A DNA stretch of 64,000 nucleotides from Pseudogymnoascus verrucosus. Lineage: Eukaryota. The stretch is from the NCBI GenBank assembly GCA_001662655.1, contig KV460213.1; one strand, 5' to 3'. The position numbers were made by a program, and so were the translations under genes. Below, piece by piece: positions 53,124 to 64,000 of the stretch (positions are counted from its first letter, which is position 1; the number at the start of each line of letters is the position of its first letter). A model generated the notes under the pieces. The model was not told the origin of the DNA and ran no database searches. It saw only the letters and a list, made by a program, of their open reading frames with translations.

Positions 53124-55555
53124 TTATGCCACCATCAAGTCGTTATACAGCCCCTTCACATTCACCACAGCCTCAACTTCTCCAAGAGTGCTAAGAATCA
53201 ACGCTTTCTTCGCAATACACGCGCTCATCCTTCTCTTATCTCCCAACTTATACCATTCCCCAAAACAGCGTTCGATGCCCTCCAGGGCCAAGGTTAACAT
53301 ATCCTTGCGTTGCAAGCTCTGGGAAGTCGCCTGCCCTGCTTGCCCCATGTAGGCGTCGACTTGGAAACCCCACAACTCTGCAGATAATGCGGCATCCTCA
53401 CACTCCAGTGCACGTGGAATAACGGTGGTGAGAATCCGAGATGCGGCAGAGAACTCATACAACGAGGTGAGAACAGAAGCAATGATTCCTATGGCCTCCC
53501 ATAAAGGTGGAAGTATGTGCGCTCGCCAAGCTAAGGTTGCTGCATGAACTGCAACTGAGAAGCCTTTCTGTGGACGGCCACATTTGTTGAATAGGAGAGC
53601 TTTCATGTTGAGAAGCTTGAGGCGGAAGAGTATATCTTCTCCTTCGCGTTTAAACCCCAAAGATATCTCTTCGACACGACAAAGGGCGTTGTCATAATCG
53701 CCGCGCTGAATCATTACCTCAATATGAAGAATATTAAGCTCAAATGAAATGTCCGCGTCGCCACCTCGGCATTGGAGGAGCTGCAGTAAGAGTTGATCTG
53801 CACTATCGAGGTTTCCACCGTGCAAATCTTGCTGTACTTGCAGAATTCCACGAAATATGAGCCAATATTGGCTTGCTTTCAGTGATCGCAGAGAGTTTTG
53901 ATCTAGCTGCTCTAATTTTGCATGGGCTTCGGCATATTGGCCATTCTGACCAAGAAGGTAGGCAGAACGACAAGAAATTTTGAGAATATCATCGAATGGG
54001 GCGAGGCGGGAGTGACTATGCAGGAAGCATTCGCAATATGACCACGCAAGGTACGTGATGCCGAGGCGGCTCCACAGAGATGACTGCAGCAACATCTGGA
54101 CCCCCACGTTGCTCATCATGTTCTTATTTATAGTGAGCTGTGAACTTCTCAGGATATTTTCAAATGCGCCCGAGACGCTTTCTCCGGCAGAAAGCCCCAT
54201 CTTGGCTTCACTGAGGAGAGACGAGCTCCACAAGCTCCACATACCCGACTCTTTGGCCTTTACACGAAGAAATGTAAGGCCCTCTCTTTCTATCCCCAAC
54301 ATATTGGTCTTGTCGGCAGAGTTTATAACCGTTGGTTGTGCTTTGCCGAAGTGATACAACCAGCTCAAGCTAAAGTTTAAACAACCCATATCCTTATTCT
54401 CTCTTGCTGTGGACACTGTCTCTTGCATTGCGGCCGCTGCTTCTTGATAGCATCCAAAATCAGCTTGAAGCACAGCAAGATTTAGCAATGCATACTGATA
54501 AAACAGCCTATCTCTGTTCTGCATAGTATAGTCGAAGAATCTATGCAGGTTGTCAAAAGACGTGGGATAATCCCCCGCCCGCCACGAATCAAGAAACCTA
54601 GTGCACGTTAGAAGAGATCTTGCAGTTCTAGTCAACATCATGGATATAACCATACTTGACATAATGTGATAAGCTTGGTATCATGACATCGCCGTCGAGG
54701 ATCTCCTCAAATTGTTGTTGTAGAGTCTCTGGGACTCGGTTGCCAAATTCTTCTACCATTAGCTATGCATATGTGACCGGAGAAGGGACACTTACTCTGC
54801 ATCTGCTCGATCTGAAACTCAAGCAGTTTCTCAACGTCATTCGTGCTAACTAACCCGTCCGGCGATCGGCCATGATGCGTAAAGACGTTGGGATAGGCCA
54901 CACTGACTAATGTTTGCAACGTATCCTGGTCCCACTCTTTGTCCGCCTCTTCCAACATTGCATCGAAGCTCCAGGTTCCCGCGTTTGGGTTCCTCCTTCT
55001 CCAAGTACTTAAGGTAACCTGACGATATGCAATGAAGCTTGTCCACAGGTTCAGCGTATCTTGAAACTTCAGCCTGGTGAATTCTAATTGTGACCTTCGC
55101 ACAAAAGCCCCAAACGGACTCGCCCTCGACAGTAAGATCATGGCTTGACTCGGGGGAGGGATTCCAATATCCGTGTCCATTTGGGTATCCTCGCGGGTTT
55201 TCATGAGCAGGTGTGACCTCCGCTCAAAAAAAACGTGTAGCGCATGGAGCGAGTTGATATCCCACAACTTCATCAAGAATATGTCCCATAATGTTCGGCC
55301 TGGGAGACCAGACGCGGACGGATAGGCGCCGAGGAGTCTCTCAAAGTCCTCGATTGAAATGATAAAATTAGCACGATCCTCCCGTGTTTCGTTGTTTGAG
55401 AAATGATCACGAGGCTTTGGAAGACTTGGAGGCAGTAAATTAGAGACAATAAACGACAGTATGGGAACTGTGGATGGTATTGGAACCGCCGAATCCGTAT
55501 ACAATTCGATCAGGCATAAAAGCCCGATACTGGCAGGAGTCAAGTATCTTGCCAT
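53124..55555 (-). CDS. APC5: Anaphase-promoting complex subunit 5
   Basis: MARYLTPASIG...SPFGAFVRRSQLEF...FDNLHRFFDY...YQYALLNLAVLQADFG...ARENKD; syntenic with COX13/APN2. Confidence 0.92.
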
Positions 55556-55866
55556 CACGAAGGCTTCATGGGTAGTTTGTGAAGGGATACAGCATGACTT
55601 GGTGTGCTATCTCCAATGGACTGTGTTACGGTTAATTGTGGCCGTAGATCTCCGGATTCAGACCCATTGTTCCGTTTGAACGATCACTAAGGTGTTTCTT
55701 TGGAAGTGTGTTTGGATTAGACCTTCATCATAGTCGCGTTACCTGTTTGCATCGAAAGCAAATAAATTCACGTGGTCACGTGGTGTATATGGGCCTAGGT
55801 CTTCGTCTTCCTGGGTGATCATAGATGCTCGATATCACCCGTTCTTATTATTGTACAAGGGCTAAG

Positions 55867-56741
55867 CTACAAAGGTTTACTGCCATTCCATCTGATATTC
55901 GCGCCATGTTTGCTCTTCAATTGGCCTTCCTCTAATCCCCCATCTTCAATAGAATCGTCCATAGTGGCATTGTTTGTTGCCCATATGCTCTCAACAGAAA
56001 TGTCAAACTTTCCTGGCACTCGGTCTATTAAACCAATGCCAATCGTTCTCACCTTTTGGCGCATTAGTTCCGTTTGTGGTTCCATTACGGTTCCATGGTT
56101 GGTGCGAACGAAATCATTCCACTTAATGAGAACAGTTTCCCATTCTCCCGGTTTTCGAGCATAGACCCTGTGCTGGTGTATATCGCTCGGTACAATTGAT
56201 TCTGTTTGTAGGTTGACAAAGTACTTCCGCCCATCAGACTTTATACGCATCGCCAAGTATGTGTATGGGTCGATGTCCCAGAGGCTTTTTCCGAAGATCG
56301 TTGGTGGCCTGTCCCGAGTCCTCCAAGCAGCATAGCCGGTGCGTTGAATTTGAGGTTTGTTTGCTGGAAGATCAATTGATATGTTGCCGTGGAACCTTGC
56401 ATACCCTCGAGAGTTATTTGTTGACTTGGAACTCGAGGAGACGTCGGGTGGGTTCCAATCGAGATTGGCTTTGGTGAATCCACCCATATCAGCGTCGGAC
56501 ATAACTTTACATGCCGCGGTTTCTTCTGGGCTATCGAAAGTCTTCAAAACGTAAGGAGCCGTGGGAAGCCTAACAGCTTCACCCTTTAATGCTGCCAAGG
56601 CGAAAAAGATCAGCAAATCGGCATTGATAAGCAGGTATAGTAGTGTAAGGGACGGCCTTTCCTACCTAGTCTTGAGTATCTCTGCAGTTCATCGATGCTT
56701 CGGCCAATAAAGCCTCGGTTTAAACTTCCGGTGACCCTCAT
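55867..56741 (-). CDS. CIA30: Complex I assembly factor CIA30/NDUFAF1
   Basis: MRVTGSLNRGFIGRSIDEL...MSDADMGGFT...ARFHGNIS...RTGYAAWRT...KSDGRKYFVNLQT; one intron. Confidence 0.92.
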
Positions 56742-57166
56742 ACTGACCTTTGGGAGAGGCTGTATCTCACTGCTTTCGGTCTCGATATCAGACCTCGTCG
56801 GTCCCCAGTGACTGTGGCAGTGTAAACAAATTAATTTAAGAAAGACGCCGCTCGTATAGTATTACAAGTAACGGCATTCCATATACATTTTAGATAAAGT
56901 TTGTGGCCACTCGAACAAGACCAAAGCAATGTCTCTTGTTACTACTAGTGCCATGAAGACAAGTTGATGGTCCATCTATATTTTGAGGCTCAACATCGTC
57001 GGATAAATTATGGCCCCTCGGCACACCTTTGGTCCGTGCCCCATAGTAAACCCACCCAACTCCTAAGGATCCAACGTCACGAAACCAACAACAAAACTTG
57101 GAAGTTTATGAGATGCTGAGCAGCATCTGTTGAATTTAGAATGTATCCAGACTTTCATTTTCTTCG

Positions 57167-57194
57167 TTCAGTCTTTCAGTCTTTCAGTCTTTCA
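57167..57194. repeat. Microsatellite (TTCAGTCT)x3.5
   Basis: Read directly. Confidence 0.85.
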
Positions 57195-58426
57195 TCTGTC
57201 AGCGTTTGAATGCCGCAGCTTCTAATATTTCCTAAACTATCACCACACCTGCTCGATGACATCCTGCCTCAATCCCGGGAGCCTCAACGTTTGAAGGGAT
57301 TAAAAGGCAATTACAACGACAGGTGTAGGATAATTTCAAGGGATCACCCTTGAAGTTTTGCTTTTCGTTGGTCTATATATTCATTGGAAGGGTCTAATTT
57401 CTTGTTTTGTTTTACATACAGTGTTCCCAGTGGTCCATCCCAGGCGCAGATGGATGGAAGACTTCGTACATGTTCGAGTCTAGAGCAATCCATCGCCATC
57501 GTTATACACGTACAAAATCGTCCATTATATTTTTCAATGCAATTGTCTCCGTACAATAATATTTTCTTTTGTGGCGTGAAGCTATATTTATAGAGCCGGA
57601 GCCAAGCTTGTGCTTTTCACAGCCTCACTGCAGCTCACTACAAATGGCACGGCGTTGTCCAACAAATTGCATCATCACGACCAGATTTCCCTGTATAATT
57701 CAGGCTTAGTCTAATCTAATCCACACAGCTCTCCAAGCAACGGTTGACATCCAGTCGCGGTCACGAGAGGAAACGCGGTTACCACATGACCCCCCTTCTT
57801 CGCGCTTAAGCCCTCGTCTCGTGGTCAGGAACCGCCGGCGCAAAATTAAGCCGACTTCCAAGCAGGTACATAACCCCATTCAGCTTTTGAGTGCTCTCGC
57901 TGGGCCAATATCCTTGAATTGAGTAAAGCGCCAATTTCTCTAGCGCGGTTCAGGATCAAATAAATCACCCCCCCCTTTTTTCAAACGCTCTTCCTTCCAA
58001 CCTTCTTCACCCTGTTTACGCGTATTTTGTTCGATCCACACTCACTTTCGTTCTACTTTCCTTATTTCCCAAGACTCTCAATTTCTTTTCCTACGTTCCT
58101 TACTCCCAAAGACTTCCAATTTCCTCTCTCCCAACCTTCGTTATTTCCCCAAGACTCTCGTTTCCCTTTCTTTCTTTCCATTTGTCATATATACACTCTT
58201 TTCATCTGTCTTTGCACACAGATTCTTCAATTTCTCCAGCTCTTCAATCTCGACAAAAGGCAAGTGGTAATCTTTAGCATAGATGACAAGGGACTTTGTT
58301 GTACCTGGCATCGAAGCATGCAGCCTTCTCATGTGGCACTAGAATTCCCATTTCCACGGTTTTGCAATGCGCTAACATAGCCCATCCAGCTCTCATCGCA
58401 GTCCAATACTGTCTCCGGTCATTACA

Positions 58427-60745
58427 ATGTCCAATAAATCCAAGATCAGCGCGGCTGAAAAAGAGATCTGCTTCGGATTTATTCAGAGCCACTTGTCTCC
58501 CAAGAGCATTAACTTCAGCGAAACTGAGCTGAGCCCCGTTGCTTCGGATGAATCTCCATGCAAGAGAAAAGGTACCTTTCACAAACCATTTATACCCCTT
58601 CATTTTAGCTGTTGAGCCTCTATCTCTATTGCTTTTATATTCTCATGTTGTAGTTTAATTTTTAATTTCTCCGACCAAGGGATTTGTTAACGACCTTGCT
58701 ACAGGTAAAACTACTACTGTTGAAACGGAGTCATCCCTCTGCAGCGACAATGATAGTGTTCATACTCCGGAACAAGCGTCACCATACCTTGTCACTGATA
58801 CCGAGTAAGTATCCTCTATCAACTAACTTTCAGTTGTCGTTGACAGATTTCAAGCACTTGTTCTTTCGTACGGCCTGGCAAAGGTACAGAAGACCCCGAC
58901 CCATTCATTGCCCGTACTCCTTCCGACGAGTATGGTGGATCTCCGTCCAATCATGGTGTGCGCCGCGGTGCTTCTCGTAAGCATACGAAGAAACTTGGCT
59001 CTTGTCGTTCGACTCCGTCTGCGAGTGATAAGATCATGAAGAACTGGCGTGTCACTGCGGCTATCACTGATGATAGCTCTCCAGCTGATGGTAAGCGCGT
59101 TCGTGGCAGTCTTCATGCTTGCGTCCCGGATACTGTCATTATCGACAAGAACAATTGTCAATTGTATTATTCTCCAGACAGTTGTCTGTTTGTTGCCAAG
59201 TAAGTAGAATGCCAATGCATCAAGTTTCATAGCTTATGCGATTGTTACCAGCCTGAATAGCCAGCATGACGAGGTTGAACTTGAGGCTGCAGTTACCGAA
59301 GTCTTCCGCAAGTATGGCACAGTCTACGTCAAGATCACTCGTGATAAGAAGAATATGCCAATGGGCTTCGTTCAGTTCACGGTGAGCATTCTGCTAATAT
59401 GCAGTCTTGTAACCTCCGCTAACCTCCTACAAGAATAGTTCCGATGCTGCTCGCGCCAGGGATAAAGCTAAAGGCACAGTTATTTTCGGCCGTGGATGTC
59501 GCATTGAGTGGTCCAATGCCAACCGTGGGTTCCAAAATTCAGCTTTCAATAATCTCAGCCATTCTAACAACACATTCTAGGCAATTACCATCTTACTCGC
59601 CACGACGGTATCGACGTTACCGAAGACATGGCTCGTGCCGTCCTGGAAGAGTTTGGTGAGCTTGAGCGTATACACTTTCCAACTGAAACTGAGATTGTCA
59701 TTTTCAACCTCGGCCGTGGTCCTCTGGTCACTTTCCTCAACTACCAGAGTGGCCGAGAGGCTTTGAATGTAAGATACTGCGCGCTGATTTGCCTACTTAC
59801 CATTAACAATGTCTACAGGAGCTCCGCGATTCTGACGAGTGGAACTTCCAAGCCAAGATTAATGAGCGCAACGCTTCGCCTTTCCAGTCCGGAAAATCTG
59901 CCGTTTCCCGTAGCTGTTTCACTGGGAAAGCCAACCTCGACAGTTTTGAAGTCGACCAGCGTTCTATATTCGTCGCCAACCTTCCCGCAAATGTCACAGA
60001 GTCTCAGGTCCATGACCTCTTTGATAACATGGGTCACATCATCAACATTACCGTTAATCGTCGCCCGTCCGTTCGTGAGGGTAGGTTTAAAACATCCATT
60101 CCCAAACTTTCCCTGACTTTATTTAGGGTGTGACGTTAATGTTTTTGCATACGTGGAATTTGCGAATCCTGGTTCCGTACAGGATGCCATTGAGGCTATG
60201 GTAATATTTGTGCCCCCCTCATTCGGCACTGAGATTCTAACATTGCTCAGAATATGTATTCATACGGTGGCAGTCGCCTCAAAGTCGACCAAAAGAAGCC
60301 ACAGGACATGGTCTCATCTGCTCGTCGGAAGCCTCTTGCTCAACGTATCACACATGATGGCAGCGGTGCAACGGCGGTGACTCCATCATACTACGGGTCA
60401 CCATATCCATACATGGGATACCCGCCAACCCCTTACACGGGCAGCACCTATCCTGCATATGCTCATTATCCCTACCATATGGCACCTTACTGCTACCCTG
60501 GCAGCCCAGGCTATGCTACAACCCCAGTCTCCGACAACGGCAACGGTCACGGTCATGCCACTACTGGCCCGCCTCCGGTATTTGCCATTCCAACTCCGCA
60601 TGGACAGGTTGATTACTACGGCCAAAACCAGGTGCTTCCGTATGCTGTTCAATACGGTCCTCAGGCTCATATTTTCCAACACACAGCGACTGGCGACGGC
60701 ACAGATGCTGGCGAAGCTACCGATTCATACCAAAGTGTGCAATGA
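58427..60745 (+). CDS. RIM4: Three-RRM RNA-binding protein, Rim4-like meiotic regulator (multi-exon)
   Basis: Spliced: PDSCLFVANLNSQHDEVELEAAVTEVFRKYGTVYVKITRDKKNMPMGFVQFT...AKGTVIFGRGCRIEWSNANR...ARAVLEEFGELE...DQRSIFVANLP...FAYVEF, then a Y/P/G-rich low-complexity tail. The layout matches yeast Rim4 (SCIFVASL, RCEPAKVNR, DKKSIFVG). The start codon is tentative. Confidence 0.72.
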
Positions 60746-61778
60746 GCACGCCGCATCTTGTGTCCTGGGCATTCTACGTTGATGTGATGGATCCCGCTCA
60801 TTCATCTGATCATTTCATCCCCAAGCGACAAACATTCTCGCGCTATCGTTCTATCAACTGGCTTTTATCATGGCTTCTCCGGGCCAGTGCTGATGGATAT
60901 GTCTGCTTCAATTTTTCCGGCTCAACGCAATTCGCTTTGTTGATATATTATGCGACTCATGGGTTCGATCAGGATGTCCTGTACCAAGCGTCCTGTCTCA
61001 ACGCTCTGAGCTACTTCAGCTCTTGCAATTGGGCTTCCGTGCCTGCCCGTGGCAGCTTGCCGAGAAATATATCAGATGGCATTTCAAATTCCAACAAGCT
61101 CGTTATTGTGGAAACACTTTGTTTTCAAGGTTTATCATGCTGGTGGCATGGTTTTAATGGTAATATTGGCCTGCTCCGCCGGTTTCTGCATAATCATGGC
61201 AAATCCGACATAGGATAGGGTCCAAGTCGAAACACCCAAAAGAAAGCAATTGCTTGAGGCTATTCTAGTTAAACTGCTCGGGCTAGTTCCTGTACATAGT
61301 AGTTTACAATAATAATAAACAGCTTTCTGTAAAGTTTTGCGAATTTCCGGGCTGGAGATAATTTTTGAAAAGTGCGTCGTCTTCGATAATATAGCATAAA
61401 TAATCCTGGGCCTGCCTGTCCTCTGCACGGCTAGAGACGGCATAGCGTTGGTGCGGCACGTGTATGACAGGTAAAAGTCACTAACTCGATTAGAGGTGCA
61501 TCCAAGAGCCAAAGCTAAAGCTAAAATGGCGATACCGGACTGGTGTGTCAATTTCTATTTCTTGTACGTACTCGTACCTTTATTTATTACACCTGTACTT
61601 GGCTATTTATTGATGCCCCCACTGCCATTTTTATCTTTTTATCTTATCGTTTTCCATTCCTGTGACGCCAAATCTAAAAGAAAAACTTCAACAAACCTTC
61701 AAATCTTGAAGTCAACTCGCCGAACAGTTTCTATCGTGTATTGCTAAACCGAGACATAAAAGCTCCAAGAGTCACGCC

Positions 61779-64000
61779 ATGGGACAACCTTCCACGCAGG
61801 CATCAAATGCCCTGATCTATATCACCTATGGCTCCTTCCTGTGCGACTCTCCCATTAAATCTTTACTACCAGTCTCTCCTGAAGACGAGAAGGGTATTTC
61901 AGAACTAACTTGCCGTGCCTTCAGGATTTTTGGCTGTGCCATCGCATGGCGGCTCCGGCATCAGACGAAAGACGAGTTCCTCTCCAGCAACAGAACGCAG
62001 ACTGGTTAGATAACCTCCACACGACCCTTCCGTGTCTGGCGTCAATCCTGTCCCCCAACAGCTGAAGCGCCTCCCCCAATTGACCACCCCCCCCCCCAAT
62101 ATTAGAAAAACAGCTGCTAATATTGATTCATAGCCGGACCGTTGGCGCTTAACTTTGTCGCTTCTGGTAAGTACTTTGCGGCGCCTTTGTTTTCGATTCG
62201 GTGAACGGCGGCAGCAACTCTCGTATATATATATATACGGATTCCCAGCACGAACAAGCAACACGAATATCGCCCAAGAGAGTGAAAACTCTCCGACAGA
62301 TCCCAACTGCAAACCATGAGTTATTAAATCATAAGGTTCGTATTTGCAGAAAATACCATGTACGCCTCGAACCTTCTCCTTGGCACTCTAGAGCAGGCAT
62401 TTTGCAATTTGGCTGTGTTGGCTTTGGAGGCCGAGGAGGTGGCAGAGAGCGGGCATTGTGTGGCTTCACTACGGGCGCTGAACCTGGCAAATACTGGGAT
62501 ACACCTCTTCTCTATGTTCACGTAGGGAGAGATATCTCAGTGTTTTGCTCAGGTGAAGCTGAGATTGTACCGTGATTACTCGATCAAGTTAATGCTTGCG
62601 TGGGAAAGTGCTGCCGCCTCGAAACCCCCTTCCCCCCATTGTTGCAGACTGCTAACATTAGATTTTTTTTTTCAATTAAACAGCCCTGGGTTCCGGTATT
62701 CTGTTCTCATACCCGCAACTGGCTGCTCTTACTGGCGTGCAAGGCGTGATCGTCTATGCCGTTAGTTCAGCGGCTCCTCTTATGATATTTGCTATCCTTG
62801 GCCCGATTATTAGAAATAAATGCCCCGAAGGCTTTATTCTCACGGAATGGACAAGACAACGATATGGTGTTGCTACAGCTATGTTTCTCAGCTTTCTCAC
62901 GCTGGTCACAATGTTTCTGTACATGGTAGCAGAACTCTCTGCAATGCAGCAAATCGTCGGTGCTTTGACTGGAATGGATGGCCTGCCAGCAATCATCGTG
63001 CAAGCCGTCGTAACGACGATATATACCTGTAGGTCATCCTTGCCTGTTTCTGTTCTTTTGCTGATCGTTGTAGCTCTCGGTGGCTTCAAAATCTCATTTA
63101 TAACCGACAATATCCAAGCAGTCATGGTCTTCTTTTTGGTTGCAGTTGCTACTATCACCATCGGGGTTAAGACGAATGTGGATCGCAGCCTAGTTGATTC
63201 TTCCGGCTTACTCAATCCTACTCTTCTGGGCTGGCAACTTCTGTATATTCTTCCAGTCGCCGTCCTCACAAATGACTTCTTTCTTTCCAACTTTTGGATC
63301 CGCACTTTCGCCTCTCGAACTGATAAAGACCTCTTCATAGGGGTCTCAAGCGCCTCAGTTATAGTGCTTGTCATCCTGACGCTTGTTGGTGTAACGGGTC
63401 TGCTCGCCGTCTGGACGGGGGCATTAGCACCTGGCGAAGACGGCTCCATCGCCTTCTTCCTTCTTCTGGAAACACTACCCAGCTGGGTTGTCGGAATTGT
63501 CCTGGTCATGACTGTTACGCTTTCTACAGCAGCGTTTGACTCCTTCCAGTCAGCCATGGTTTCTAGTGCTTCGAATGATCTGTTCAGGAACAAACTCAAC
63601 ATCTGGGTTATTCGAGCTGGGATAGTGGCGCTTATATTTCCTGTCGTTGTGATTGCTCTCAAAGCGCCGTCGATCCTGCAGATATACCTGATCTCCGACC
63701 TTGTTTCTGCCTCGACCATTCCTGTATTGGTTATTGGCCTTAGCGACCGCTTCTACTGGTGGCGCGGATTTGAGGTTGTAATCGGCGGTCTTGGTGGAAT
63801 TCTGACTGTATTCATCTTTGGAACAATCTACTTCGGGAATGCCCTTGATGGCGCAAAATTGATCTTGCTTGAAGGCGGTCTATACGCCAATGATTGGAGT
63901 GCATTCGGTGCTTTTGTCGCTGCTCCTTTTGGAGGACTCCTTTGGGGCTTTGGTGCATTGGTCGTTAGACTGAGCTTTCAGTGGCTTATTGCGAAGATAA
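61779..64000 (+). CDS. Sodium:solute symporter family transporter (NCU01977/Dur31-like, probable thiamine or precursor uptake); partial at window end
   Basis: Spliced MGQPSTQASNALIYITYGSFLIFGCAIAWRLRHQTKDEFLSSNRTQTAGPLALNFVASALGSGILFSYPQLA...KCPEGFILTEWTRQRYG...SFITDNIQ...FWIRTFAS. Many TM segments; the frame appears to continue to the window end. Confidence 0.88.
62467..62610 (+). ncRNA. TPP (thiamine pyrophosphate) riboswitch aptamer in intron 3 (62167-62683) of the transporter
   Basis: P1 CACT/AGTG; P2 TACGG/CCGTG; GGGCGCT...AGCTGAGA; TTGTACC; ACTCGATCAAGTTAATGCTTGCGTGGGA (P4/P5 CAAG-TTAATG-CTTG); long extended P3 hairpin. Confidence 0.93.

Follow-up and report, generated by a model that had tools for sequence, protein, structure and literature searches.

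The 517-nucleotide intron at positions 62167-62683 of the window (the whole 64,000-nucleotide stretch of Pseudogymnoascus verrucosus contig KV460213.1, assembly GCA_001662655.1, analysed here) raises the question of whether long-range base pairing between its 5' splice site region and a thiamine pyrophosphate (TPP) aptamer controls its splicing. The precedent is the switch of Neurospora crassa NCU01977 (Li & Breaker 2013, PMC3597705), which corresponds to the 'Type II' of Mukherjee et al. 2018 (PMC5882874). A preliminary description of the locus had proposed three helices that, without TPP, would disrupt the aptamer and bring the donor closer to the branch site, and a sequence check recovered all eight of its motifs in place (Table 1). 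The intron is considered here, with a probability of about 0.85, to be a splicing switch based on a TPP riboswitch of 'Type II' (NCU01977/DUR31-type) and operating through an alpha-alpha' helix.

Table 1. Position of the intron features and flanking exons in the window
Feature	Position	Strand	Remarks
Exon 2	62134..62166	+	33 nt, ..GPLALNFVAS plus first base of a split codon
S1, first (productive) 5' splice site, GTAAGT	62167..62172	+	Joint in X1
CGGCGCCT, 5' arm of proposed helix 1	62179..62186	+	Unsupported as functional pairing
TTTCGA, outer arm of alpha	62191..62196	+	Complement of 62619-24; 10-nt bulge (62197-62206) before alpha core
In-frame TGA	62202..62204	+	Read when the whole intron or its 5' portion remains in the mRNA
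Alpha core GGCGGCAGCA	62207..62216	+	Fits RGCGGYRRY at 62207-15
(TA)n hairpin	62221..62240	+	62221-28 with 62233-40 in the minimum-free-energy (MFE) fold; lies 3' of alpha and 5' of 'beta'
'Beta' element	62242..62260	+	Pairs with aptamer P4 and P5 3' strands in the MFE fold
Putative alternative 5' splice site AG|GTTCGT	62336..62341	+	Conserved; counterpart of N. crassa S3
TPP aptamer	62460..62617	+	Rfam RF00059 match, conserved blocks, consensus fold
Aptamer P1	62460-69 with 62608-17	+	
Aptamer P2	62471-74 with 62570-73	+	
Aptamer extended P3	62476-62559	+	84 nt
Aptamer CUGAGA	62559-64	+	
Aptamer P4	62579-81 with 62602-04	+	
Aptamer P5	62585-88 with 62595-98	+	
Alpha' TGCTGCCGCC and outer arm TCGAAA	62609..62624	+	Alpha' (62609-18) overlaps P1 3' strand by 9 nt
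Probable branch site GCTAAC	62651..62656	+	28 nt 5' of acceptor; from sequence only
3' splice site AG	62682..62683	+	Joints in X1
Exon 3	62684-63028	+	Joints in X1; protein comparison

The intron has GT..AG ends and interrupts the coding sequence of a transporter gene of NCU01977/DUR31 type. Its splice junctions were read from contigs of X1, a sequencing run evidently containing cDNA: joints 62003>62133 and 62165>62683 (each cut +1) delimit exon 2, in agreement with the translation, and the productive junction 62166|62684 is seen directly, the joint at S1 skipping 517 nt between GT..AG ends at a depth of 2.9 in one contig. Depth in the same run is 4-8 over the riboswitch intron, so that unspliced intron is also covered, against 0 in both upstream introns. 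By its coding sequence the gene is the orthologue of DUR31/NCU01977, and the Dur31 protein of Candida is a thiamin transporter (PMC5997356). The best protein matches are 77% identical and are named urea transporter (PF00474), while a Pfam scan of the two exon translations on their own returned no family. Among 33 related loci, the exon 2 peptide stands directly 5' of the donor in 27, and exon 3 is 71-83% identical (best segment) in 27 loci spanning all 114 residues. The hexamer GCTAAC is the probable branch site, and a CTAAC-, CTGAC- or CTAAT-like motif is similarly placed in most aligned introns. Translation of 62136-62345 ends after ..GKYFAAPLFSIR, at the TGA at 62202. Further downstream, the AG|GTTCGT at 62336 is a conserved feature absent from the preliminary description; it belongs to a nearly invariant block, AGGTTCGT (alignment A1), and N. 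crassa S3 stands at ATAG|GTTCGT. Among the joints listed for X1, none uses an alternative donor.

The aptamer, carried by the intron in this orthologue's coding region, shows helices P1-P5, CUGAGA and the ligand-binding core at P4/P5, and all enforced helices consist of standard pairs. Rfam model RF00059 matches it with 34.2 bits (E 6.5e-5), under the gathering score of 54.3, and at that threshold gives no match in 55000-64000 or in 20 orthologous loci; the model scores the long fungal P3 unfavourably. RF00059 places the 5' half of the aptamer inside P3, a placement that was dropped in favour of 62460-80. This half is anchored by the N. crassa sequence and by the block CACTACGGG(C/T)GC, present in 27 of 27 aptamer-bearing introns (the variable base being C in 25 and T in L018 and L029). 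P2, P3, P4 and P5 all appear in the consensus fold, in which eight pairs show compensatory changes. The 3' half is identical, letter for letter over 48 nt, to the aptamer of N. crassa (all comparisons with that sequence were made by eye), for which TPP binding has been demonstrated experimentally by in-line probing (PMC3597705).

The second of the three proposed pairings, 62207-16 with 62609-18, is real, being rare in shuffled sequences, present in the MFE fold and conserved; it is the alpha-alpha' helix of Li & Breaker 2013 (PMC3597705). The parallel with NCU01977 already drawn in the preliminary description holds, as this pairing fits the published consensus and position: GGCGGCAGC (62207-15) conforms to RGCGGYRRY and begins 40 nt past the G of the first donor, and alpha' forms the right shoulder of P1. 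From the end of alpha' at 62624 to the acceptor there are 59 nt, and from 62618, the end of the 10-bp core, 65 nt; in the published set the S1-alpha and alpha'-acceptor distances are commonly under 60 nt (PMC3597705).

The alternative that this complementarity is coincidental, the riboswitch acting by proximal effects only, for example by donor masking as in NMT1, can draw on two observations of Li & Breaker (PMC3597705), namely that some response to thiamine persisted when alpha was deleted and that a P4-P5 complement lies at S4. It is nevertheless barely conceivable for the present intron, since the complement is rare in shuffles and is conserved over 25 introns together with its spacing. 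When the first 60 nt behind the donor were searched for a perfect complement of at least 10 bp, 8 of 2000 dinucleotide shuffles contained one to the aptamer zone and 5 of 2000 one to the P1 3' zone. The 10-mer itself occurs twice in the window, once per strand, against 0.14 occurrences expected. Alpha-alpha' has pair probabilities of 0.6-1.0 and a duplex energy of -20.9 kcal/mol (-24.1 with the outer extension), and the fold containing it is more stable by 11.5 kcal/mol than the aptamer-enforced one. An aptamer and the two splice sites are present in 27 introns, the window's own and 26 metagenomic ones, and in 17 of these the pairing of the alpha zone with the P1 3' zone surpasses that of 95% of shuffles.

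Moreover, an unbiased RNAalifold consensus of 25 introns contains the long-range alpha-alpha' helix as well as P2-P5. At the seven core positions standard pairing holds in 22-25 of the 25 aligned sequences, with C or U facing G and A or G facing U; at the tenth position the window and L028 have G-C, and 12 others have A-U. The core variation is almost wholly one-sided because the aptamer fixes alpha'. Alignment shuffle controls on the core were not significant for three measures (49-91 of 500), and doubly changed cells gave 11 of 500. Ten pairs are contiguous in the window, followed by the 10-nt bulge and six more. Nearly all species in the published set have 11 or more continuous pairs, a figure not stated there as a rule (PMC3597705), and at least 11 are reached by 9 of our 27 introns; one orthologue group has a contiguous core of only 7 bp. 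The complement to alpha' has been lost in L002, and the L021 intron has no aptamer.

The conserved core sequence and the few doubly compensated changes would also suit a protein-binding splicing enhancer near S1, the complementarity to P1 being then a by-product of its resemblance to the P1 5' strand, and the alpha-like GCGGTAGCA retained in L021 beside no aptamer points the same way. Against this stand the N. crassa mutants M3 and M6, in which alpha was altered and pairing restored, with wild-type splicing and expression (PMC3597705), and the limitation of alpha changes to those that preserve pairing with an invariant alpha'; such an enhancer is very improbable.

The third proposed pairing, TTTCGA with TCGAAA, is plausible as an outer extension of alpha-alpha', with modest support, but is weak by itself: the duplex alone is worth -4.0 kcal/mol, its pair probability is 0.03-0.04, and a fold made to contain it is 1.8 kcal/mol less stable. 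Outer helices of different spelling occur in other lineages. In a partner-swap test with 14 lineage representatives, chosen by hand from 26, the outer arms pair at -4.28 kcal/mol with their own partners and at -3.35 with those of others, a difference reached by 411 of 20000 permutations, while a stand-alone test, which has little power and inconsistent anchors, gave p <= 0.05 in 3 of 27. In N. crassa alpha has 17 nt, and it is plausible that the present extension corresponds to its outer portion.

The first proposed pairing fared differently. CGGCGCCT and GGGCGCTG (62473-80) do form an 8-bp complement with two G-U pairs (-13.5 kcal/mol), and a ligand-free structure built jointly by all three helices can invoke L028, in which all eight pairs are Watson-Crick, the two differences between it and the window both being G-C to G-U. 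When the spacer is compared with the 18-nt P1/P2 strand only, p is 0.044 in the window, which is marginal, and 0.012 in L028. Against the whole aptamer 5' part, however, the complement is at chance level, being matched by 1115 of 2000 shuffles; it has a pair probability of 0, and a fold made to contain it is 19.6 kcal/mol less stable. The CGGCGCCT element is found only in the window and L028, which are 90% identical, so that its retention says little, and introns starting GTTAGTAC have an AT-rich spacer without it; none is visible by eye in N. crassa. Of the aligned cells 57.9% pair, a share reached by 473 of 500 shuffles, and p <= 0.05 is obtained in 4 of 27 introns by energy and in 0 of 27 by longest helix. 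Furthermore, given the order 62179 < 62207 < 62480 < 62609, this helix crosses alpha-alpha' and the two could coexist only as a pseudoknot; the helices of the preliminary description thus do not make one nested structure. As a functional helix the first pairing finds no comparative or thermodynamic support in shuffles, alignment or folding, and the joint three-helix structure is improbable.

The anatomy of the intron, the conservation of alpha-alpha' and the productive junction are established by the present analysis, and the direction of regulation and the response to the ligand can be modelled on the N. crassa experiments, where disruptive and compensatory mutants proved the pairing (PMC3597705). 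Without TPP, alpha' (62609-18, probably to 62624) would pair with alpha (62207-16 and, across the bulge, 62191-96), looping out about 390 nt that include the putative alternative donor or donors and most of the aptamer. S1 would be placed near the branch site and acceptor, favouring the productive junction and, as proposed, transporter synthesis. With TPP bound, P1 would form and sequester alpha', and S1 would lose its advantage to downstream donors such as the conserved AG|GTTCGT or to intron retention; the in-frame TGA would then be left in the message and expression is proposed to drop. Of the mechanism first put forward, the pairing of the distal element with the P1 3' strand, the looping out of the intervening RNA and the favouring of the productive splice stand, but not the part assigned to the first pairing.

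N. crassa NCU01977 is orthologous, and its coding region is interrupted at the same codon, after ..LALNF(V/I)AS; the resemblance further covers the 48 identical nucleotides of the aptamer, an alpha that fits the consensus and an alpha' overlapping the P1 3' strand, the short S1-alpha and alpha'-acceptor distances, a conserved GTTCGT (S3 in N. crassa, here a putative alternative donor) and an in-frame stop after S1. The N. crassa intron is longer, with 684 nt (246-929) to the 517 nt found here, and its loop spans some 530 nt where the present one would span about 390. Here 10 contiguous core pairs are separated from the outer arm by a 10-nt bulge, whereas the N. crassa outer arm is nearly continuous; moreover, a (TA)n hairpin follows alpha in the present intron, in which thiamine-dependent splicing is a prediction. 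As in NMT1 and THI4 (Cheah et al. 2007, via PMC3597705 and PMC5997356), the TPP aptamer is intronic. The NMT1 intron, though, lies in the 5' UTR, and the element pairing with its aptamer masks a proximal alternative donor, while here the main partner is the P1 3' strand and the element lies beside the distal productive donor, in the coding region. The orthologous DUR31 thiamin-transporter gene of Candida parapsilosis also has a riboswitch intron, whose splicing is thiamine-regulated, but that intron has 351 bp and the authors deem a long-range interaction unlikely (Donovan et al. 2018, PMC5997356).

The mechanism is thus real but already known, here in one further species, and the current picture of eukaryotic riboswitch control is unchanged. 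The analysis adds this species and about two dozen uncultured relatives to a mechanism proven in only one organism, and the comparison locates the decay of the switch, in L002 without the alpha' complement and in L021 without the aptamer. It also shows the long-range helix accommodating a 10-nt bulge and an adjoining polymorphic hairpin: (TA)n varies in length, TA being inserted behind 62223 in X1 and the hairpin being shorter in L028.

A second complementary element, here called 'beta', is a further conserved feature that the preliminary description did not contain. It has the form CCC(A) plus CGCA-A-AGCA, 0-45 nt 3' of alpha (62242-46, 62250-52 and 62255-60 in the window), with TGCTTGCG-TGGG as partner. 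It could pair as UUCCC with 62602-06, ACG with 62599-601 and CAAGCA with 62593-98, at pair probabilities of 0.40-0.99. In NMT1 and THI4 the P4-P5 strand of the ligand-free aptamer binds an element farther upstream in the intron (Cheah et al. 2007, via PMC3597705 and PMC5997356), and 62242-60 would act alike. The accessible portions of PMC3597705, PMC5882874 and PMC5997356, and the titles and abstract openings surveyed, contain no description of it. That the ligand-free structure is larger than the published alpha-alpha' helix, with beta pairing to P4' and P5', is a tentative suggestion that we hold to be rather doubtful. If true, alpha and beta would act as one composite anti-aptamer that opens the entire aptamer 3' half, with P5', P4' and P1', and a second segment of this kind could possibly explain the residual thiamine response that Li & Breaker saw after alpha deletion. 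Nevertheless, the N. crassa deletions that apparently start just past alpha left regulation robust (PMC3597705). In energy terms the pairing exceeds 95% of shuffles in just 7 of the 27 introns, and beta is poorly retained in the GC-rich long-intron group. Beta cells pair in 81.5% of cases against 26-48% with partners slid, and the best upstream complement to the 15-nt aptamer strand falls in the beta zone in 18 of 27 introns (14 of 23 after removal of four near-duplicates), against about 22% expected. Finally, in L005 and L006, where P5 is CACG/CGTG instead of CAAG/CTTG, beta has the matching C for A.

Close to the productive first donor S1 of the N. crassa intron lies a GC-rich element, alpha, which in the absence of TPP pairs with alpha', the 3' shoulder of aptamer helix P1: this pairing strongly raises S1 use and hence expression, its effect being lost in disruptive mutants and regained in compensatory ones. 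It is kept in 16 of 18 further riboswitch-bearing species, alpha following the consensus RGCGGYRRY, with S1-alpha and alpha'-acceptor spacings commonly below 60 nt (PMC3597705). In many fungal genes of the urea-transporter family, the same 'Type II' design has been described by Mukherjee et al. 2018 (PMC5882874). The present locus is this known mechanism, correctly recognised in the preliminary description, in a further filamentous ascomycete. All the motifs named there were found in the sequence at their coordinates and, of the three long-range pairings thought to tie the donor to the aptamer, two (pairing 2 and, plausibly, pairing 3) belong to the known alpha-alpha' helix, while pairing 1 does not stand.

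Features of the riboswitch intron, its flanking exons and the outer arm in other lineages (window coordinates)
Feature	Position	Partner or occurrence	Basis or remark
Gene start	near 61780		model from X1 joints
Exon 2	62134-62166	..GPLALNFVAS + first base of split codon	33 nt; X1 joints
Riboswitch intron	62167-62683	between exons 2 and 3	GT..AG, 517 nt; X1 joints
Exon 3	62684-63028		X1 joints
Pairing 1	62179-62186	62473-62480
Pairing 2	62207-62216	62609-62618	alpha-alpha'
Pairing 3 (TTTCGA/TCGAAA)	62191-62196	62619-62624
Second element, UUCCC	62242-62246	62602-62606 (predicted)	MFE fold
Second element, ACG	62250-62252	62599-62601 (predicted)	MFE fold
Second element, CAAGCA	62255-62260	62593-62598 (predicted)	MFE fold
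Outer arm GATC/GATC		L014, L016, N. crassa
Outer arm GTCGA/TCGAC		L023, L027
Outer arm ATTAGA/TTTAAT		L019, L022
Outer arm TCAAA/TTTGA		GTTAGTAC group

The exon structure was obtained from contigs of a sequencing run, X1, matching the window. They are catalogued only as 'RNA?', and the run evidently holds cDNA, because its contigs carry four GT..AG joints (61840>61925; 62003>62133; 62165>62683, 517 skipped, cut +1; 63028>63074). On read-through of the riboswitch intron, translation meets an in-frame TGA at 62202-04. Relatives of the downstream protein, at most 77% identical, are named urea transporter and carry PF00474, and a Pfam scan of the two exon pieces alone found no family. Comparison by eye with the NCU01977 sequence in the Li & Breaker 2013 supplement (PMC3597705) identifies the gene as orthologous to this N. 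crassa gene; in Candida, the NCU01977 orthologues, DUR31, are thiamin transporters (PMC5997356).

No TPP riboswitch was reported by Rfam at its gathering score. With an E-value threshold, a match appears at 62513-62623 (34.2 bits, E 6.5e-5; cut-off 54.3), the low score being due to a P3 of 84 nt (62476-62559), and none of 20 orthologous loci reaches the gathering score. Rfam's placement of the 5' half was rejected, as it falls inside the actual P3; the 5' half really lies at 62460-62480. All 27 aptamer-bearing introns examined carry the block CACTACGGG(C/T)GC, with C in 25 and T in L018 and L029, the N. crassa aptamer having the C form. Further, from GAAGCUGAGA.. to ..GCGUG the window equals by eye, across 48 nt and with no differences, the N. 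crassa aptamer, for which TPP binding has been established by in-line probing (PMC3597705, Supplementary Figure S5 legend). RNAalifold on 25 introns pairs the 5' block with the strand following CUGAGA and recovers P2, the long P3, P4 and P5, with compensatory changes in 8 pairs of these helices; P1 is not predicted in this consensus. In L023 and L029, the L5 loop has UCAU instead of the usually conserved UAAU, and these aptamers may be weakened.

Pairing 2 is rare in shuffles, present in the minimum free energy (MFE) fold and kept across orthologues, and is the published alpha-alpha' helix of Li & Breaker. GGCGGCAGC (62207-15) matches the alpha consensus and alpha begins 40 nt past S1, while alpha' (62609-18) shares nine nucleotides with the P1 3' strand (62608-17) and, when extended, ends at 62624, 59 nt before the acceptor. 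The 10-mer has just these two sites in 64 kb (0.14 expected), and an equally long perfect complement arises in 5-8 of 2000 dinucleotide shuffles. The helix (-20.9 kcal/mol) has pair probabilities of 0.6-1.0; the aptamer-enforced fold is less stable by 11.5 kcal/mol (-171.1 vs -182.6), a gap of roughly the size that, we infer, could be offset by tertiary contacts together with ligand binding. A (TA)n microsatellite (62221-62240), located between alpha and the element that follows, forms a hairpin and is length-polymorphic, with TA inserted in X1 and 6 nt fewer in L028.

For comparison, the exon-3 peptide was searched against metagenome contigs, giving 33 related loci with best-segment identities of 70-90% (71-83% in the 27 loci covering all 114 residues). 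Exon 2 and the donor are reached in 27 of the 33, the remaining six ending too early, and the aptamer core is found in 26 of these 27, the exception being L021. The alignment of orthologous introns (A1) comprises the window and 24 loci, omitting L021, L026, which hardly differs from L024 and L025, and L033, whose sequence is that of L005. The seven conserved core pairs are standard in 22-25 of its 25 sequences, and their variation, C/U opposite G (16/9) and A/G opposite U (18/7), corresponds to the 'compatible' changes described by Li & Breaker (PMC3597705); at the tenth pair of the window's helix, the window and L028 have G-C, 12 others A-U and one G-U. Within A1, 77.5% of alpha-alpha' cells pair, against 25-60% with partners slid; shuffle controls were not significant (49-91/500; doubly changed cells 11/500), because alpha' hardly varies. 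In an alignment-free test, 17 of the 27 introns exceed 95% of shuffles in pairing between the alpha and P1 3' zones (median p 0.04), and unguided RNAalifold predicts a long-range helix of six pairs (columns 96-102 with 813-819). The longest contiguous helix measures at least 10 bp in 16/27 introns and at least 11 bp in 9/27, being just 7 bp in most introns beginning GTTAGTAC.

Two loci depart from this arrangement. At L002:1075-1498, alpha (TGCGGCAGCA) is intact and the P1 3' strand has changed to GTGAAGC, which has lost its complementarity to alpha and pairs perfectly with the P1 5' strand GCTTCAC. This lineage may have a locked or rewired switch. At L021:301-585, the orthologous gene has at the same codon an intron of just 285 nt, without TPP aptamer and with an alpha-like AATGCGGTAGCACC about 55 nt past the donor, which looks like riboswitch loss with an alpha relic.

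Pairing 3 continues alpha' directly on the 3' side, its alpha side being set off by a 10-nt bulge. By itself this helix is weak (-4.0 kcal/mol, probability 0.03-0.04, +1.8 kcal/mol if forced). An outer arm, spelled differently, exists at the same place in other lineages (by eye in N. crassa), some of them likewise bulged on the alpha side (2 nt in L027, about 6 in L012). In a partner-swap test on 14 lineage representatives, chosen by us from 26 loci, own flanks gave -4.28 vs -3.35 kcal/mol for foreign ones, which was reached in 411/20000 permutations; the window's own pair ranked no higher than 4th by row and 3rd by column. An earlier stand-alone test of the outer arm, with poor anchors, gave 3/27. 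With modest support, pairing 3 plausibly corresponds to the outer portion of the N. crassa alpha, which is 17 nt long.

The complementarity of pairing 1 is real (8 bp, two G-U, -13.5 kcal/mol). On the aptamer side it uses invariant P2/J2-3/P3 sequence, which leaves no room for covariation, and its 5' side is found only in the window and L028, whose introns are 90% identical; both differences within the pairing turn G-C into G-U. In A1, 57.9% of cells pair and 473/500 shuffles do as well. Alignment-free tests gave p <= 0.05 in 4/27 introns by energy (window 0.044, L028 0.012, L008 and L016) and in 0/27 by longest helix; against the whole aptamer 5' part, the search space from which the pairing had been drawn, 1115/2000 shuffles match it. 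ViennaRNA assigns it probability 0, forcing it costs 19.6 kcal/mol and, since it crosses alpha-alpha', the three helices cannot form one nested structure. Pairing 1 is not supported as a functional helix; it reflects chance or, at the most, a pseudoknot confined to one lineage. Within its element (62177-62186) is the word GCGGC, which resembles alpha or the P1 5' strand; directly after the L016 donor stands a near copy of that strand (GCGGCTCAC), and L018 has ATTCACG on both sides of alpha. Such words may be duplicated decoy elements.

An alternative donor and a second complementary element were missed in the preliminary description. AG/GTTCGT (GTTCGT at 62336-41) is nearly invariant (A1 columns about 331-339) amid poorly conserved intron sequence, and is a predicted donor matching S3, an alternative donor of N. 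crassa; if used, it would keep the TGA at 62202 in the mRNA. About 15-20 nt upstream of GTTCGT, a conserved ATGAG can pair with UUCGU (62316-20 with 62337-41 in the MFE fold).

The second element lies shortly 3' of alpha and is complementary to the 3' strands of P4 and P5 (P4', P5'), its MFE pairs in the window having probabilities of 0.40-0.99; in most loci it reads CCC(A)..CGCA-A-AGCA. Its cells pair in 81.5% of cases vs 26-48% when slid, and the best upstream-intron complement of the 15-nt aptamer strand falls 0-45 nt past alpha in 18/27 introns (14/23 without four near-duplicates), about 22% being expected by position. A compensatory change accompanies the CACG/CGTG form of P5 in L005 and L006: their element has C for the usual A, probably through a single evolutionary event. 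Against it, only 7/27 introns beat 95% of shuffles by energy, it is weak in GC-rich long-intron loci and N. crassa deletions that retain regulation seem to cover the corresponding stretch (PMC3597705). No description of it was found in the available parts of PMC3597705, PMC5882874 and PMC5997356. Further downstream, the stretch ATCCCAACTGCAAAC (62299-62314) looks similar to this second element (CCCA..GCAA); in L028, the P4'/P5' strand finds its best complement in the corresponding stretch (-17.6 kcal/mol).

Finally, X1 depth is 0 in bins wholly inside the two upstream introns, 4-8 across the whole riboswitch intron, 8-27 in exon-only bins and 20.8 over the conserved aptamer core, where contigs of other organisms may contribute; the productive joint 62165>62683 has a depth of 2.9. 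These values fit an often-retained riboswitch intron, contig depths being a poor measure. No joint from an alternative donor is listed among the X1 contigs. One of these tracks the window to 62624 and continues with 210 nt of related but different C-rich sequence, which probably stems from another allele in the sample, or from a close relative, and not from a splice joint.
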